64,000 nucleotides of DNA from Minisyncoccia bacterium (lineage in GTDB: Bacteria; Patescibacteriota; Minisyncoccia; Phycocordibacterales; UBA9973). The stretch is taken from contig JBDHUR010000003.1 in the NCBI GenBank assembly GCA_039809265.1, positions 15,274-79,273 of the forward strand, given 5' to 3'. This document shows, in pieces, positions 4,780 through 11,815 of the stretch. How positions within the stretch are numbered: the stretch's first letter is position 1; each line of letters starts with the position of its first letter. The notes beneath the pieces were generated by a model. That model searched no databases. It saw only the letters and a program-made list of their open reading frames with translations, and was not told the origin of the DNA. The translations under genes and the position numbers were made by a program.

Positions 4780-5214
4780 ATGGGAAAAAAGAGAATTATA
4801 ACTAAAGATGGCCAGTCAGGTGAAGGGCAAAATGCTTCGCGCGGTGCTGCAAAAACTCCTAAGAAGAAGATCACTTCTGCGACTTTACATGTGGAAGCAA
4901 CTTTCAACAATACCAAAGCTGTTGTTTCTGATAAACAAGGCAACACTCTTTTCTGGTCTTCAGCCGGTATGCTTGGTTTCCGTGGTGCAAAGAAGGGTAC
5001 TCCTTTTGCTGCAGGAAAAGTGGGTGAAGTCCTTGGAGACAAAGCCTATGCTTTGGGGATAAAAGATGTTGATGCCGTCGTTAAGGGTGTCGGCTCTGGT
5101 CGCGAGCCCACTATCCGAGCATTTATTGGAAAGGGTTTTGAGCTTACAGGCGTGCGTGATGTGACTCCAGTCCCTCACAATGGCCCAAAGCCGAAAAAGC
5201 CTCGTCGAGTATAG
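4780..5214 (+). CDS. rpsK: 30S ribosomal protein S11
   Basis: 144 aa; conserved S11 sequence (e.g. GFRGAKKGTPFAA). Confidence 0.9.
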   Translation: MGKKRIITKDGQSGEGQNASRGAAKTPKKKITSATLHVEATFNNTKAVVSDKQGNTLFWSSAGMLGFRGAKKGTPFAAGKVGEVLGDKAYALGIKDVDAVVKGVGSGREPTIRAFIGKGFELTGVRDVTPVPHNGPKPKKPRRV

Positions 5215-7616: not shown

Positions 7617-8024
7617 ATGGAAAAAACAAAAACAAAAAAATATACAGAGACTGTTGGCCGAAGGAAAACTTCAAGTGCCCGAGTGCGTGTCCTAGAAGCT
7701 TCAAAAAGCTCTTTCATTGTGAATGAAAAAGATGCTCATGATTACTTTCCAACAAGTGAATTGAAGAATATTATTCATGGTCCTGTTGCCGAGCTTGGAC
7801 GAGAAGGCAAGTTTGAAATAACTGTAAAAGTAAAAGGTGGTGGTGTGCACTCTCAAGCAGAAGCTGTGCGTCATGGAGTTTCTAGGGCGCTTGTAGAGAT
7901 GAATGAAGAAGACAGAACTACTCTAAAGAAAGCTGGTTTCCTAAAACGTGATCCGCGTATCAAAGAACGCCGTAAGTTTGGTTTGAAAAAAGCTCGTAAA
8001 TCCCCACAATGGAGTAAACGTTAA
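7617..8024 (+). CDS. rpsI: 30S ribosomal protein S9
   Basis: 135 aa; GRRKTSSARVRV..., C-terminal KKARKSPQWSKR. Confidence 0.9.
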   Translation: MEKTKTKKYTETVGRRKTSSARVRVLEASKSSFIVNEKDAHDYFPTSELKNIIHGPVAELGREGKFEITVKVKGGGVHSQAEAVRHGVSRALVEMNEEDRTTLKKAGFLKRDPRIKERRKFGLKKARKSPQWSKR

Positions 8025-8031
8025 GTTACTA

Positions 8032-8063
8032 CCTCCACACATAATGTGTGGAGGTTTAGTTTT
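8032..8063 (+). terminator. rho-independent terminator after rpsI
   Basis: Perfect 10 bp stem cctccacaca / tgtgtggagg with taa loop, followed by tttagtttt. Confidence 0.6.
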
Positions 8064-8240
8064 AAACAAACCTCTTCTTGTATCTTAAATAAAACATTGT
8101 GATATAATAACCATATAGAACTTTCTAACGATTTCTTCAATAAACGCCTTGAGTTAAAGAAGAAACTAAAGGATAAAGAAGGCAGATCATATGCAGAGAT
8201 AAAAAAAGAAAAACAACCACATCTTCATAGCGAAGATGTT

Positions 8241-9404
8241 TTGTCTGAGGTTGACGCTCTTATAGGTGAAGAAAATGACTTGCTGCTCTCTAACATAGAT
8301 GGTATGTACGAATATGCAAAAGAAGAAACCGGTAGTCATACACTGCCAGAGTTGTTAAAACTTGCCAGAGAAGAAAAAGAAAAATCAAAAAGAACTCAAA
8401 ATATAATACACCATGTTAAAACACTAGATACTCTAGAAGAAAAGATTGAAAAATTACGATACAATTTTCGCAGTAAAAACACAGGCACACACATAGATGA
8501 CAAAAGACTACTAAGCTGGGATAAAGCTGAAGAAAAAATAAACAATGAGCGTCTTAAATTGTCCGAGAATAAAGAGACATCGCACATTTCTCGTATGGTA
8601 GAACTTCTAAAGTACAAAGAGCAGGCGAAAGAAGGGTTTATAGAAACACCATCTAGGACAGATAAAAAGAAAGAGATTGTAAAACTCATGCGAGAATCTA
8701 AGAAAGGTATTTTCTTAGAAGGTAGCTCTGGTACAGGTAAAACACAGCTTTTACGACATATTGTAAAAAGTTTAGAAGGATATGAGCCAGAAATATTTGC
8801 TTCTACTGACCAATCTCGCGAATCAGATATCGTTGGCAAGACTGGATTAGATGTTAAAGATGGAGCAACTATTTCAAAGTTTAATGAAGGAATGCTTGTC
8901 CGTTCCATAACAGAAGGCCGTAAAGTTATTTTCGATGAATTTAATAATATGGAAAAAGGTTTGCGCTTATTATTAAAGCGTTACTTTGCCCTTAAACCAG
9001 GAGACACTTTTACTGTACCGCAAGATGGTAATACGATTTATACGGTAAAAGATGGTTTTAGAATATTAGCCACAGGCAACCTCCCAGGACCACATCACAC
9101 AGATCGTAACCCTCTCGGAGATGAAGAAACTAGAGAGTTTGAAATGCCTCATCTTGATCAAATGCCAGCAAATGAGATATACGACACACTTCTTGTTGCT
9201 TCTATGCGTGAAGATAAATCTGTTCCATATAGCAAAGACGAGGCTGAAACAACTCTTGCGAACTTAGCTAGGGCAATAAATGAAGCACACATTGCATATA
9301 CAGAAGGCAAGTCAGATTTCTTTGCAAGCGGAAATGTCCTGAAGGGTAAAAATCAAAGCCTAAAAAAGCAGTCCTTGACCCAGCACAATATCTTTCTTGG
9401 GTAG
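8241..9404 (+). CDS. AAA+ ATPase, AAA_5 (MoxR/McrB/dynein-related) type, with charged coiled-coil N-terminal region; start codon uncertain; possibly frameshift-joined to the next ORF
   Basis: Walker A GSSGTGKT, Walker B VIFDEF, sensor-1-like ILATGN. Frame is open from 8103 with no ATG until 8302. ORF-track start is TTG at 8241. Confidence 0.6.
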   Translation: MSEVDALIGEENDLLLSNIDGMYEYAKEETGSHTLPELLKLAREEKEKSKRTQNIIHHVKTLDTLEEKIEKLRYNFRSKNTGTHIDDKRLLSWDKAEEKINNERLKLSENKETSHISRMVELLKYKEQAKEGFIETPSRTDKKKEIVKLMRESKKGIFLEGSSGTGKTQLLRHIVKSLEGYEPEIFASTDQSRESDIVGKTGLDVKDGATISKFNEGMLVRSITEGRKVIFDEFNNMEKGLRLLLKRYFALKPGDTFTVPQDGNTIYTVKDGFRILATGNLPGPHHTDRNPLGDEETREFEMPHLDQMPANEIYDTLLVASMREDKSVPYSKDEAETTLANLARAINEAHIAYTEGKSDFFASGNVLKGKNQSLKKQSLTQHNIFLG

Positions 9405-9433
9405 AAGGGTATAAAAATCAAACAAAACAATCA

Positions 9434-10399
9434 TTGCCGGAATATTTATGTGAGAAAATAGCCTTTTTTGCCGGCAATGGAGATTTTCCAGAAAACGACA
9501 GAAATCTATTATTTAAGATCTTTCAAAGGTTTGGCTTTATGAATGGAGCTACTAACATATCTCGCTTCGGTGTTACCGAAGAAGAAGCAGAAGCACTTGT
9601 TTGGCAGTCAAAACTCGTATATGAAAAACCATCACTCCGCAACTTACCAATTGAAGAAATATCAAAACTTGACCCATTTAAAATGCGACAGATCAAAGAA
9701 GATAAGTTGATTGAAGACTTTATTGCTCAAAACCAGACAAAAGAACAGAAAGAAATATTGAATAACTTTTCTGAACAAGGGCAAATTTTAACTAAAAAGA
9801 AAAAAGAGAAGTTCACACAAGAAATCGACACCTTCTGGCGAGATACATACACAAATGACTGGTCATTGAACAATCAAGACTTATCAAAAGTAAAATTCAC
9901 TCCAGAATTCTTAAAGCCAGAAGAAATAAAATGGCAAGATATAGCTAAAGCAAAAGATGATCCAAAAGAATTTGGTAAATATATTACAAACCCAGAAACA
10001 GCTTTACTTGATTATGAGAAACTAGGTAAACCAGAGATATATAATCCAAATGAAGATATAGATTTGGATAAATGGTTAGAGAAGAATAAACTAAAGAAAA
10101 ACCCCGCATCTGTTATGCAATACGTTGCAGAGAAATTCAGTAAAACATACTATCTTCCTGGAATAGAGTATCAAAAATACCTATTTGAAAACCAGAAAAA
10201 GAAAGGAGTAATACCTGAAGAATTAAAAGATGGTAATTGGTACTACTTTCCAGGTGCGTCTTTCCGCGGCTCAGATGGCAGTTGGTGCGTGCCATTTGGC
10301 AGCTGGAACTCTAGTGGTTCGTTTTGGGAGCGCAGTGGTAATTGGACTAGTCTTGGCTGGAATGACCACGAGCGTGTTCTGCTCCTCGGGAAGAAATAG
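9434..10399 (+). CDS. hypothetical protein with Trp/Gly-rich C-terminus (possibly the C-terminal part of the preceding AAA+ protein)
   Basis: 321 aa ORF with only a TTG start and no RBS. The same frame is coding-like upstream to 9350. C-terminal GNWYYFPGASFRGSDGSWCVPFGSWNSSGSFWERSGNWTSLGWNDHE. Confidence 0.4.
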   Translation: MPEYLCEKIAFFAGNGDFPENDRNLLFKIFQRFGFMNGATNISRFGVTEEEAEALVWQSKLVYEKPSLRNLPIEEISKLDPFKMRQIKEDKLIEDFIAQNQTKEQKEILNNFSEQGQILTKKKKEKFTQEIDTFWRDTYTNDWSLNNQDLSKVKFTPEFLKPEEIKWQDIAKAKDDPKEFGKYITNPETALLDYEKLGKPEIYNPNEDIDLDKWLEKNKLKKNPASVMQYVAEKFSKTYYLPGIEYQKYLFENQKKKGVIPEELKDGNWYYFPGASFRGSDGSWCVPFGSWNSSGSFWERSGNWTSLGWNDHERVLLLGKK

Positions 10400-10431
10400 T
10401 ACATTGAGAATTGGTATATTGTGTATGAATT

Positions 10432-10497
10432 GACTCCGTATGTCTTTGCTAGAGCAAAGACATACGGAGTCTTCCATCAGCCGCAGGCTGATGGAAG
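10432..10497. repeat. two adjacent perfect palindromes (40 bp and 27 bp) without a U-tract
   Basis: gactccgtatgtctttgct-ag-agcaaagacatacggagtc, then cttccatcagcc-gca-ggctgatggaag. Confidence 0.6.
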
Positions 10498-10501
10498 AGG
10501 G

Positions 10502-10530
10502 TTGACAAAAGACGAAGGTGGTGATAAAAT
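10502..10530 (+). promoter_or_regulatory. consensus sigma70 promoter (TTGACA-17-TAAAAT)
   Basis: Perfect -35 TTGACA at 10502-10507, 17 nt spacer, -10 TAAAAT at 10525-10530, 25 nt upstream of the ATG at 10556. Confidence 0.5.
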
Positions 10531-10555
10531 AAGGCGAAATTAAAAATTAATAATT

Positions 10556-11158
10556 ATGTTTGAACAAAAAAACCACTCAATTTCTGAGTATGATTTAATC
10601 AAAGAGCTTTATGAAAAGATTAAACCTATTTTATTAAAAAATGACGGTTATACTTTTACAGAAGCTGAAACTCAAATGTTAAACCAACTTTTCTATTTTT
10701 TTGAAAATAGTCCGTTTTTCCCATCGAAAATTATTGTAGATGTGCTAACTCATGAAAATCTTAAAAAAGAACTTGCCACCAGGGTCCTTCTTGCAAAAGG
10801 GGTAGATAGGAAAAGCTTCACTAAAATATTAAAAGATGTTGATTTTGGTAAAATTTCTAAACCAGTTGGATTTTTCCAGAGGCTTGTTTTTACTAAAAAT
10901 AGTCAATTCCCGCAATCTAATATGAGATATATTTTTGATAAAGCACGCGAATTTGCTAATGAAGTAGAATTTATAAATATGTTACATACTATTATAGATA
11001 GGCATGATCATGTAAATCTTGAAACATTTAAACATATATTTAGAAATGAAGATAAAACATTTGCAATGGGCGTAAGGATTTTATTCAATAAAAAAAAGGG
11101 CTATCAAGGGCTTATTAGTAAAATAAAAAGTCATGAAATTTATTCGCAATATGTTTAA
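10556..11158 (+). CDS. hypothetical protein (AT-rich orphan gene)
   Basis: 200 aa ORF, markedly AT-rich codon usage, own promoter and terminator. No recognisable motif. Confidence 0.45.
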   Translation: MFEQKNHSISEYDLIKELYEKIKPILLKNDGYTFTEAETQMLNQLFYFFENSPFFPSKIIVDVLTHENLKKELATRVLLAKGVDRKSFTKILKDVDFGKISKPVGFFQRLVFTKNSQFPQSNMRYIFDKAREFANEVEFINMLHTIIDRHDHVNLETFKHIFRNEDKTFAMGVRILFNKKKGYQGLISKIKSHEIYSQYV

Positions 11159-11211: not shown

Positions 11212-11239
11212 TTGAAAAAATTTTCAAAATCATTATAAT
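11212..11239 (+). promoter_or_regulatory. sigma70-like promoter for grpE (TTGAAA-16-TATAAT)
   Basis: -35 TTGAAA at 11212-11217, -10 TATAAT at 11234-11239, only 6 nt before the grpE ATG (leaderless-type arrangement). Confidence 0.45.
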
Positions 11240-11245
11240 ACAGGT

Positions 11246-11815
11246 ATGAATGAAGAAGAAAAAATAGAACAAAATATTTTAGAGCCAATAGTAGAAGATG
11301 TAGTAGATTTTGAATATAATGCAGATGGCGAAGAAGATTTAAAAGCAACCTTAAAGAAGCTTAGAGCTGATCTAAAACAAGCCAATACAGAAAAACAAGA
11401 GTATTTAACAAATTGGCAAAAAGAACGCGCAGATTTTATCAACTATAAAAAGGACGAACTTTCTCGTGTTAAAAAAATAGAAAATTTAGCAAGAGAAAAT
11501 TTTGCCGAAAGTCTGTTTTCGGTTTTGGACGCGTATGATATGGCATTTTCAAATAAAGAAGCTTGGGAAAAAGTAGACAAGAATTGGCGTATGGGTGTGG
11601 AATATATACATCAACAGTTTCTAAAAGTGCTTTTTGAGAATGGTATTGAAGAGATATCTTCAAAAGAAGGTGATGTTTTTGATCCTAAAATACATCAGAG
11701 CGTAGAAGTCGTAAAAGGTGACGGAGTAGAGAATACTTTAGCAAAAATACTCCAAAAAGGCTACAAAAACAATGACCATATACTTCGACCAGTGAGAGTA
11801 AATGTGTGGGGATAA
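11246..11815 (+). CDS. grpE: nucleotide exchange factor GrpE
   Basis: 189 aa; coiled-coil N-terminal region, C-terminal GYKNNDHILRPVRVNV. Confidence 0.85.
   Translation: MNEEEKIEQNILEPIVEDVVDFEYNADGEEDLKATLKKLRADLKQANTEKQEYLTNWQKERADFINYKKDELSRVKKIENLARENFAESLFSVLDAYDMAFSNKEAWEKVDKNWRMGVEYIHQQFLKVLFENGIEEISSKEGDVFDPKIHQSVEVVKGDGVENTLAKILQKGYKNNDHILRPVRVNVWG

Follow-up and report, generated by a model that had tools for sequence, protein, structure and literature searches.

Two adjacent open reading frames (ORFs) of 387 and 321 amino acids, called as separate genes in the genome of a Minisyncoccia bacterium, raise the question of whether they are two genes or one, and, if one, how it came to be split and whether ribosomes can still read across the break. 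They lie in a 64-kb stretch of contig JBDHUR010000003.1 (GCA_039809265.1), hereafter the window, whose positions serve as coordinates throughout. The gene order at 4.8-14.4 kb is rpsK, rpsD, rpoA, rplQ, rplM, rpsI, the two split ORFs, a 200-aa ORF, grpE and dnaK. An earlier note on this DNA had proposed that a single-base frame change at a run of six adenines (A6) joins the first ORF, which encodes an AAA+ ATPase, to the second. Homology indicates that the two ORFs are indeed halves of one interrupted ancestral gene. The break is a one-base deletion that is present in the genome, and it is probably a recent, lineage-specific frameshift mutation, creating an incipient pseudogene that is at most leakily compensated by slippage. 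The junction comprises the following features, where the zero frame is that of the upstream ORF.

8241-9404, plus strand: zero-frame ORF of 387 aa from the TTG at 8241, with an N-terminal coiled region and a MoxR-type AAA_5 ATPase
9350-9404, plus strand: 55-nt overlap in which both frames are open, from the -1-frame TAA (9347-9349) to the zero-frame TAG (9402-9404)
9362-9367, plus strand: A6 run
9362-9368, plus strand: heptamer A_AAA_AAG, zero-frame CTA AAA AAG, in X_XXY_YYZ phase; the site of the frame change
9369-9401, plus strand: out-of-frame tail of the zero-frame ORF, 11 codons (QSLTQHNIFLG) followed by TAG 9402-9404
9368-10399, plus strand: -1-frame continuation of 343 codons and a stop, AVLDPAQYLSWVEGYK...LLLGKK, with a helical domain, a middle region that varies and a hypervariable tail
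9434-9436, plus strand: TTG, the first possible canonical start of the downstream frame, which would yield 321 aa

Re-reading of the sequence confirms that the A6 run occupies 9362-9367 and that the downstream frame is open from 9350, with no ATG, GTG or TTG until the TTG at 9434; the next start candidate is the ATG at 9539. No start codon lies within positions 9368-9433, which encode the most conserved motif of the family, and a 321-aa product from TTG 9434 would be without AVLDP and the helix that opens the helical domain. The zero-frame codons around the junction are AAG GGT AAA AAT CAA AGC CTA AAA AAG CAG TCC ... TAG. A -1 slip at the heptamer joins ...NQSLKK to AVLDPAQYLSWVEGYK..., giving 719 aa counted from TTG 8241. 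Several details of the earlier note can thus be refined. It had described a +1/-1 frameshift; the shift required is -1 (or +2) and not +1. Its single fused product stands, at 719 rather than ~710 aa. The last ~20 zero-frame codons had been considered junk, which applies to the last 11 but not to KGKNQSLKK, which is conserved in homologues. Likewise, the second frame had been regarded as coding-like back to 9350; it is homologous to relatives from 9368 (AVLDP...), and the KSKPKK that precedes this is off-frame.

By itself, the 28-codon open stretch before the TTG is little proof of a fused gene because the DNA is AT-rich. The question is instead settled by homology that crosses the junction. 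A search with the fused sequence identified P0001, a single 719-aa protein with 86% identity at 100% coverage, and P0002, a single 745-aa protein with 52% identity, as well as further single-protein matches of 793-856 aa. All relatives outside the window lineage that match the fused sequence are one protein each (719-856 aa). Alignment of both frames to homologues, a check the earlier note had suggested, places the join in the near-invariant LKK|AVLDP, so that LKKAVLDP spans the junction in the orthologues. It lies within the best-conserved motif of the family (K-x-x-L-K-K-A-V-L-D-P), and V378, D380 and P381 are invariant across the aligned family. A hidden Markov model search of 1.84 billion representatives identified 909 relatives at E<=1e-30, from which 150 representatives were listed. 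The N-terminal module is continuous across profile positions ~2-545, with the junction at ~417, and the C-terminal module (~545-805) is also found alone or on other N-termini (e.g. P0019). The natural module boundary therefore falls ~125 residues downstream of the break. Among the 150 listed representatives, P0108 is the only one that ends at the junction; the others span it, stop before reaching it or are cut short of it. A scan of GTDB genomes found distant relatives in metagenome-assembled genomes of Parcubacteria/Patescibacteria, plus unrelated AAA_5 matches in Leucobacter.

The ATPase part is classified as a MoxR-type AAA+ protein (Pfam AAA_5). Its match to the AAA_5 profile has an E-value of 1.3e-12 and scores 48 bits against a cutoff of 22, and both the Walker A (GSSGTGKT) and Walker B (IFDEFN) motifs are present. 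Sequence matches include midasin and NorQ. In an AlphaFold model of the fusion, the ATPase is confident (residues 40-360), the linker 362-369 has low confidence, and a confident helical domain follows (370-480), which begins with the AVLDP segment. The best Foldseek matches of the modelled ATPase are NorQ and CbbQ (target-normalised TM-score 0.72-0.80; E about 1e-10), which share only ~15% sequence identity with it. Features that set the window family apart from these MoxR AAA+ proteins are its long coiled N-terminus, an additional helical domain that is conserved, and the variable module at its C-terminus; there is also no VWA partner beside the ATPase gene within the window.

This organization bears on a further possibility, that the gene has undergone fission into a working 387-aa ATPase and a separate variable-region protein of 321 aa (from TTG 9434) or 286 aa (from ATG 9539). 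Gene callers predict these very products, and the A/T-rich stretch before TTG 9434, free of a Shine-Dalgarno sequence, resembles the regions upstream of other genes here. In addition, the C-terminal module is known to occur alone or on other N-termini in the family, and the break falls just past the low-confidence linker of the model. The position of the cut nevertheless makes a clean fission quite improbable, because it takes the most conserved segment of the family from both products: residues 377-398 would be lost, and with them V378, D380, P381 and the initial helix of the helical domain. Matches to the N-terminal module cross the junction uninterrupted to the natural boundary further downstream, and positions 9368-9433, which neither product would contain, show five synonymous changes against one non-synonymous.

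The nature of the lesion is evident from orthologue DNA. In the Logan assemblies L001 and L002, the gene for P0001 occupies the same locus, downstream of rpoA, rplQ, rplM and rpsI. Both assemblies read CTA AAA AAG GCA GTC CTT GAT, and the window reads CTA AAA AAG -CA GTC CTT GAC. The A6 run is equal in length in all three, and the window is short of one G (A6GG -> A6G). A change in the length of the A-run, as assumed in the earlier note, was rejected on these grounds. The junction site is in frame in L001, L002, L030, L003, L023 and L024.

The deletion is also real in the genome as a disabling lesion relative to the intact orthologues. The exact 387-aa and 321-aa proteins occur in 33 and 24 index blocks of the public collection, respectively, and each was read in at least 23 contigs from ENA, Logan, NCBI and JGI, which represent many independent samples and different assemblers. 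The ~20 contigs fetched are 99.7-100% identical over window positions 8000-10600, and a further one, L013, is 98.5% identical; all keep A6G. The exact fused 719-aa sequence is absent from the collection, in which the 90% clusters of the lineage are split or partial forms only; a scan of the JGI collection with a degenerate pattern for both alleles returned no match. An error of sequencing or assembly at the homopolymer, masking an intact gene, was among the explanations first offered, and a single-base change adjoining an A6 run is compatible with it. Such an error is extremely improbable, given that the same split allele recurs across these samples and assemblers, that the A-run is as long as in intact orthologues, and that the lost base is a G of a GG pair.

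Two breaks in other members of the family were observed. The first affects P0108 (394 aa), a distant, GC-rich homologue, in L034 (5100-5140) and L035 (ERZ1300416, ERZ2470813). At the position that corresponds to the window junction, it reads CTG GAA AAA GAC GGT CAT TGA, and its +1 frame encodes KKTVIDPA, which means that the run has gained one A. No C-terminal module follows, coverage is about 2.6x and the DNA ligase gene is split in three; the break may reflect error or decay. L030 (GCA_044220935.1, 894-3059) is a mosaic allele with an intact junction (SLKKAVLDP) and an in-frame TAA at codon 245, and its contig, which also has split rpoB and rpoC, looks like an error-prone assembly. Neither case was counted as evidence because the assemblies also split rpoB, rpoC or ligase, or have only ~2.6x coverage.

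What distinguishes the deletion in the window is its position directly 3' of the sole in-frame A_AAA_AAG of the gene. The earlier note had recommended a search for a slippery heptamer with a downstream structure, and had not mentioned that this canonical heptamer is present in the correct frame. The X_XXY_YYZ motif has zero-frame phase where the join is required, and a slip there yields LKK-AVLDP as in the orthologues. It is confined to the clade of the window, L001 and L030; distant relatives use TTA AAG AAA, TTA GAG AAG or TTA CAA AAG. Under uniform mutation of the repaired gene, one of the 2157 possible deletions would be perfectly rescued by the heptamer and 12 of 2157 near-perfectly. This coincidence is discounted because the site is among only four homopolymers of at least six bases in the gene, none longer than six, and mutational bias suffices to explain it. 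An ancestor with AAA AAA G would have had the longest run of the gene there.

These observations show that the A6GG -> A6G deletion arose, next to a heptamer already in place, inside a single ancestral gene for a MoxR-type AAA ATPase with a C-terminal domain probably diversified by a diversity-generating retroelement (DGR; see below). Standard decoding would yield the 387-aa product, consisting of the ATPase core and an 11-residue nonsense tail. A tandem -1 slip of two lysyl-tRNAs would re-read the G and restore the exact ancestral 719-aa protein (...SLKK-AVLDP...). Since the deletion directly follows a sequence on which ribosomes slip, a few ribosomes may still make the full protein. We infer that this slippage would be spontaneous, at an unstimulated heptamer, and would occur at a rate of roughly 1% or less. 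The gene would hence be a recently inactivated or strongly down-tuned (leaky) allele.

There are precedents for such leakiness. In E. coli, one-base deletions beside an A6 run are rescued to active enzyme by -1 slippage, without A7 transcripts (PMC1851650), and a 'compensatory' class of frameshifting, in which indels are bypassed at low level, has been described (PMC5009743). Heptamers without stimulators reach at most about 10x a background of 0.055% in E. coli (PMC4066793). The G-run mutants of herpesvirus thymidine kinase and the A6 deletion clones of pDEST17 likewise carry an indel beside a slippery homopolymer, and spontaneous slippage restores a little correct protein in them (PMC5009743, PMC1851650).

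The frame could also be restored in the transcript if RNA polymerase added one A in the A6 run, which would give CTA AAA AAA GCA and hence LKK-A. Bacterial RNA polymerases generally slip productively on runs of about 8-9 bases or more, longer than A6, and the gene has four runs of six and none longer. An A6 run in E. coli gave a single RNA species with six adenines while -1 translational slippage took place (PMC1851650). We therefore view transcriptional slippage as very improbable.

A more demanding alternative is that -1 recoding at A_AAA_AAG has been selected and is functional, setting a fixed ratio of short ATPase to full-length protein, as do dnaX tau/gamma or the OrfA/OrfAB products of insertion sequences. 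The site shares the zero-frame A_AAA_AAG heptamer with E. coli dnaX and IS3/IS911-type -1 sites. As in those systems, two tRNA-Lys slipping in tandem would enter the -1 frame, the overlap is short (55 nt) and the zero-frame stop comes early, 11 codons on. A slip regenerates the ancestral sequence exactly, the 343-codon downstream frame is intact, with low rates of non-synonymous change and no rate acceleration, and the split allele is the only one seen for the lineage across many samples. Two candidate stimulators were identified:

9372-9409, plus strand: weak candidate hairpin, 3 nt past the heptamer, of -10.2 kcal/mol (inner stem -5.5)
9341-9346, plus strand: Shine-Dalgarno-like GAAGGG, 15 nt upstream of the heptamer, which encodes K-G and is ancestral

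Neither is convincing. The hairpin, which two synonymous changes relative to L001 have strengthened, is weak, badly spaced and no better than shuffled sequences (z -0.6), and larger windows downstream of the heptamer likewise gave z-scores of 0.0 to -0.6. GAAGGG is probably irrelevant because the genes here are without Shine-Dalgarno sequences; none was seen upstream of rpsK, rpsD, rpoA, rplQ, rpsI, dnaK or grpE. An Rfam search over 7900-10700 gave no credible match. In-frame A_AAA_AAG is not avoided in 64 long ORFs of the window, including dnaK and rpsK (15 observed, 12 expected), which argues against high intrinsic slipperiness; in E. coli, the heptamer is markedly under-represented (PMC4066793).

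The comparison with dnaX, IS3 and IS911 also fails at other points. The frameshift arrangement is not conserved among orthologues, since the nearest orthologues and every other family member are in frame or do not reach the site. No stem-loop at 5-9 nt is convincing, and a functional Shine-Dalgarno stimulator is missing. Moreover, it is -1 decoding that would yield the ancestral full-length protein in the window, and the zero frame yields a truncation, created by a presumably recent deletion. The lineage is, in addition, too young for selection to show. An evolved programmed frameshift, which the earlier note had listed among its explanations, is thus unsupported, given that the arrangement is lineage-specific, young and without convincing stimulators, and selected recoding as a whole is rather unlikely. 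A newly arisen switch, in which most product would be the short ATPase alone and the full-length, DGR-diversified sensor would be made in small, tunable amounts, is likewise an unlikely outcome.

Of the explanations in the earlier note, the incipient pseudogene, or a leaky frameshift mutation, fits best. Several observations weigh against it. The ratio of non-synonymous to synonymous substitution rates (dN/dS) relative to the intact orthologue L001 is 0.08 in the N-terminal part and stays low (0.19) in the C-terminal part; for the 22 codons at 9368-9433, which are readable only after a frameshift, it is 0.04. A relative-rate test with L003 as outgroup shows no acceleration on the window branch (17 vs 21 unique changes). 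The clone is widespread and recombines within the gene with intact-type alleles, yet none of the 23 contigs read is repaired. The two synonymous differences in the hairpin make it 3.4 kcal/mol stronger than that of L001 (-6.8), which is suggestive but thin. Finally, no tRNA-Lys genes, which bear on the efficiency of slippage, were found in the window or the fetched loci.

Low dN/dS and the lack of acceleration would be expected under continued translation and just as much after a very recent mutation; of the two, the data favour the latter. The carrier contigs are near-clonal, with 0-6 single-nucleotide polymorphisms (SNPs) per ~13 kb once a few dense recombination tracts are set aside, and ~100% identity in the gene. 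A recent event would account for the 343-codon downstream frame, which has no further stops. Relaxed selection is undetectable within the lineage because the carriers are near-clonal and the other SNPs lie in recombination tracts. Imported patches occur in the gene in L013 (window 9814-10039) and L031 (from window 10187 on); the intact-type patches imported into carrier strains never cover the frameshift site. The gene is itself a recombination mosaic: positions 8241-8657 (139 codons) are near-identical to L001, with about 7 synonymous differences, and dS is about 1 in the rest.

The identity of the full-length protein follows from its hypervariable end.

10253-10390, plus strand: variable-region-like 3' end, GC-rich, with inter-strain variation at codon positions 1-2 on a fixed scaffold

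The C-terminal ~45 residues vary among strains of the window clade on the scaffold SDGxWxVPxGxW...WxDxxRVLL. At L003, the locus of P0002, the gene ends in 131 nt (variable region, VR, 2293-2423) of which a copy with 89% identity lies 423 nt downstream (template repeat, TR, 2716-2846). The TR has AAY codons where the gene varies, and genes for a bAvd-like protein and a reverse transcriptase come after it. This arrangement is a DGR, and by homology the window gene is a predicted DGR target, an AAA ATPase with a hypervariable C-terminal domain from a bacterium of the Patescibacteria (candidate phyla radiation, CPR). The AAA ATPase-CLec architecture is reported to be the commonest among DGR targets in CPR (PMC10907252, citing Paul et al. 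2017). The window gene shares with these proteins an N-terminal AAA_5 domain and a hypervariable 3' region with AAY-type codon variation, and its homologue at L003 also has VR/TR, bAvd and reverse transcriptase. Unlike them, it is interrupted, and no TR, Avd or reverse transcriptase is present in the 64-kb window, where the one weak match to reverse transcriptase falls on the gene for ATP synthase beta. The C-terminus, where the model has low confidence, is a candidate CLec domain. Nearly all carrier contigs share one and the same variable-region sequence, a hint that the target is not diversified at present.

Further features flank the gene.

8103-8240, plus strand: in-frame stretch upstream of TTG 8241, whose 46 codons match the N-terminal extension of homologues (FFNKRLxLKK...) and include no ATG, GTG or TTG
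8103-8108, plus strand: TATAAT of a TGn-TATAAT element, followed by 6 nt and then ATA (8115-8117) where the homologue has ATG
10432-10471 and 10470-10498, plus strand: two perfect hairpins directly 3' of the stop, with stems of 19 bp and 13 bp

In L003, the same spacing from TATAAT ends in ATG and resembles a leaderless start; in L001 and L002, a deletion has removed about 110 nt there. The grpE gene has the same layout of TATAAT, 6 nt and ATG (window 11234-11248), which suggests that leaderless mRNAs may be common in the organism. The ATA at 8115 would be either a start codon lost in the lineage or a non-canonical start; in the former case, an ancestral leaderless ATG that now appears as ATA is a possible second lesion of the gene. 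After rpsI, a strong terminator-like hairpin at window 8031-8055, ACCTCCACACATAATGTGTGGAGGT, with a T-rich tail, divides the ribosomal operon from the ATPase gene. The counterparts of the post-stop hairpins in L001 lie at 5091-5128 and 5130-5154; the first is wholly different in sequence yet perfect, and the second is conserved in sequence. These hairpins may form a structure by which a DGR recognises its target, or may be terminators that lack a T-run. The C-terminal variable-region module also occurs as a 262-aa protein with an unrelated N-terminus (L032/L033, 1-1853). Upstream of that gene is ~1 kb with no ORF in any of the six frames, possibly a structural RNA or a chimeric assembly, and it is followed by rpoD, dnaG and rpoC, not by grpE and dnaK.

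For annotation, these results mean that the two called genes (387 aa and 321 aa) are one interrupted gene, and that the interruption is biological rather than technical. They provide a clean natural case of an indel fixed exactly at the single slippery heptamer of a gene, in which the same A-run that prompts polymerase slips would also let ribosomes partly undo the damage. Without substantial -1 decoding, this is an ordinary young pseudogene of an accessory gene. If substantial -1 decoding does occur, it would capture the origin of a recoding site in an uncultured CPR bacterium, and DGR-diversified ATPase sensors would gain a regulatory layer. Were the recoding switch to prove true, it would be the first known translational frameshift that controls a DGR target protein, born from an indel at a pre-existing slippery site.

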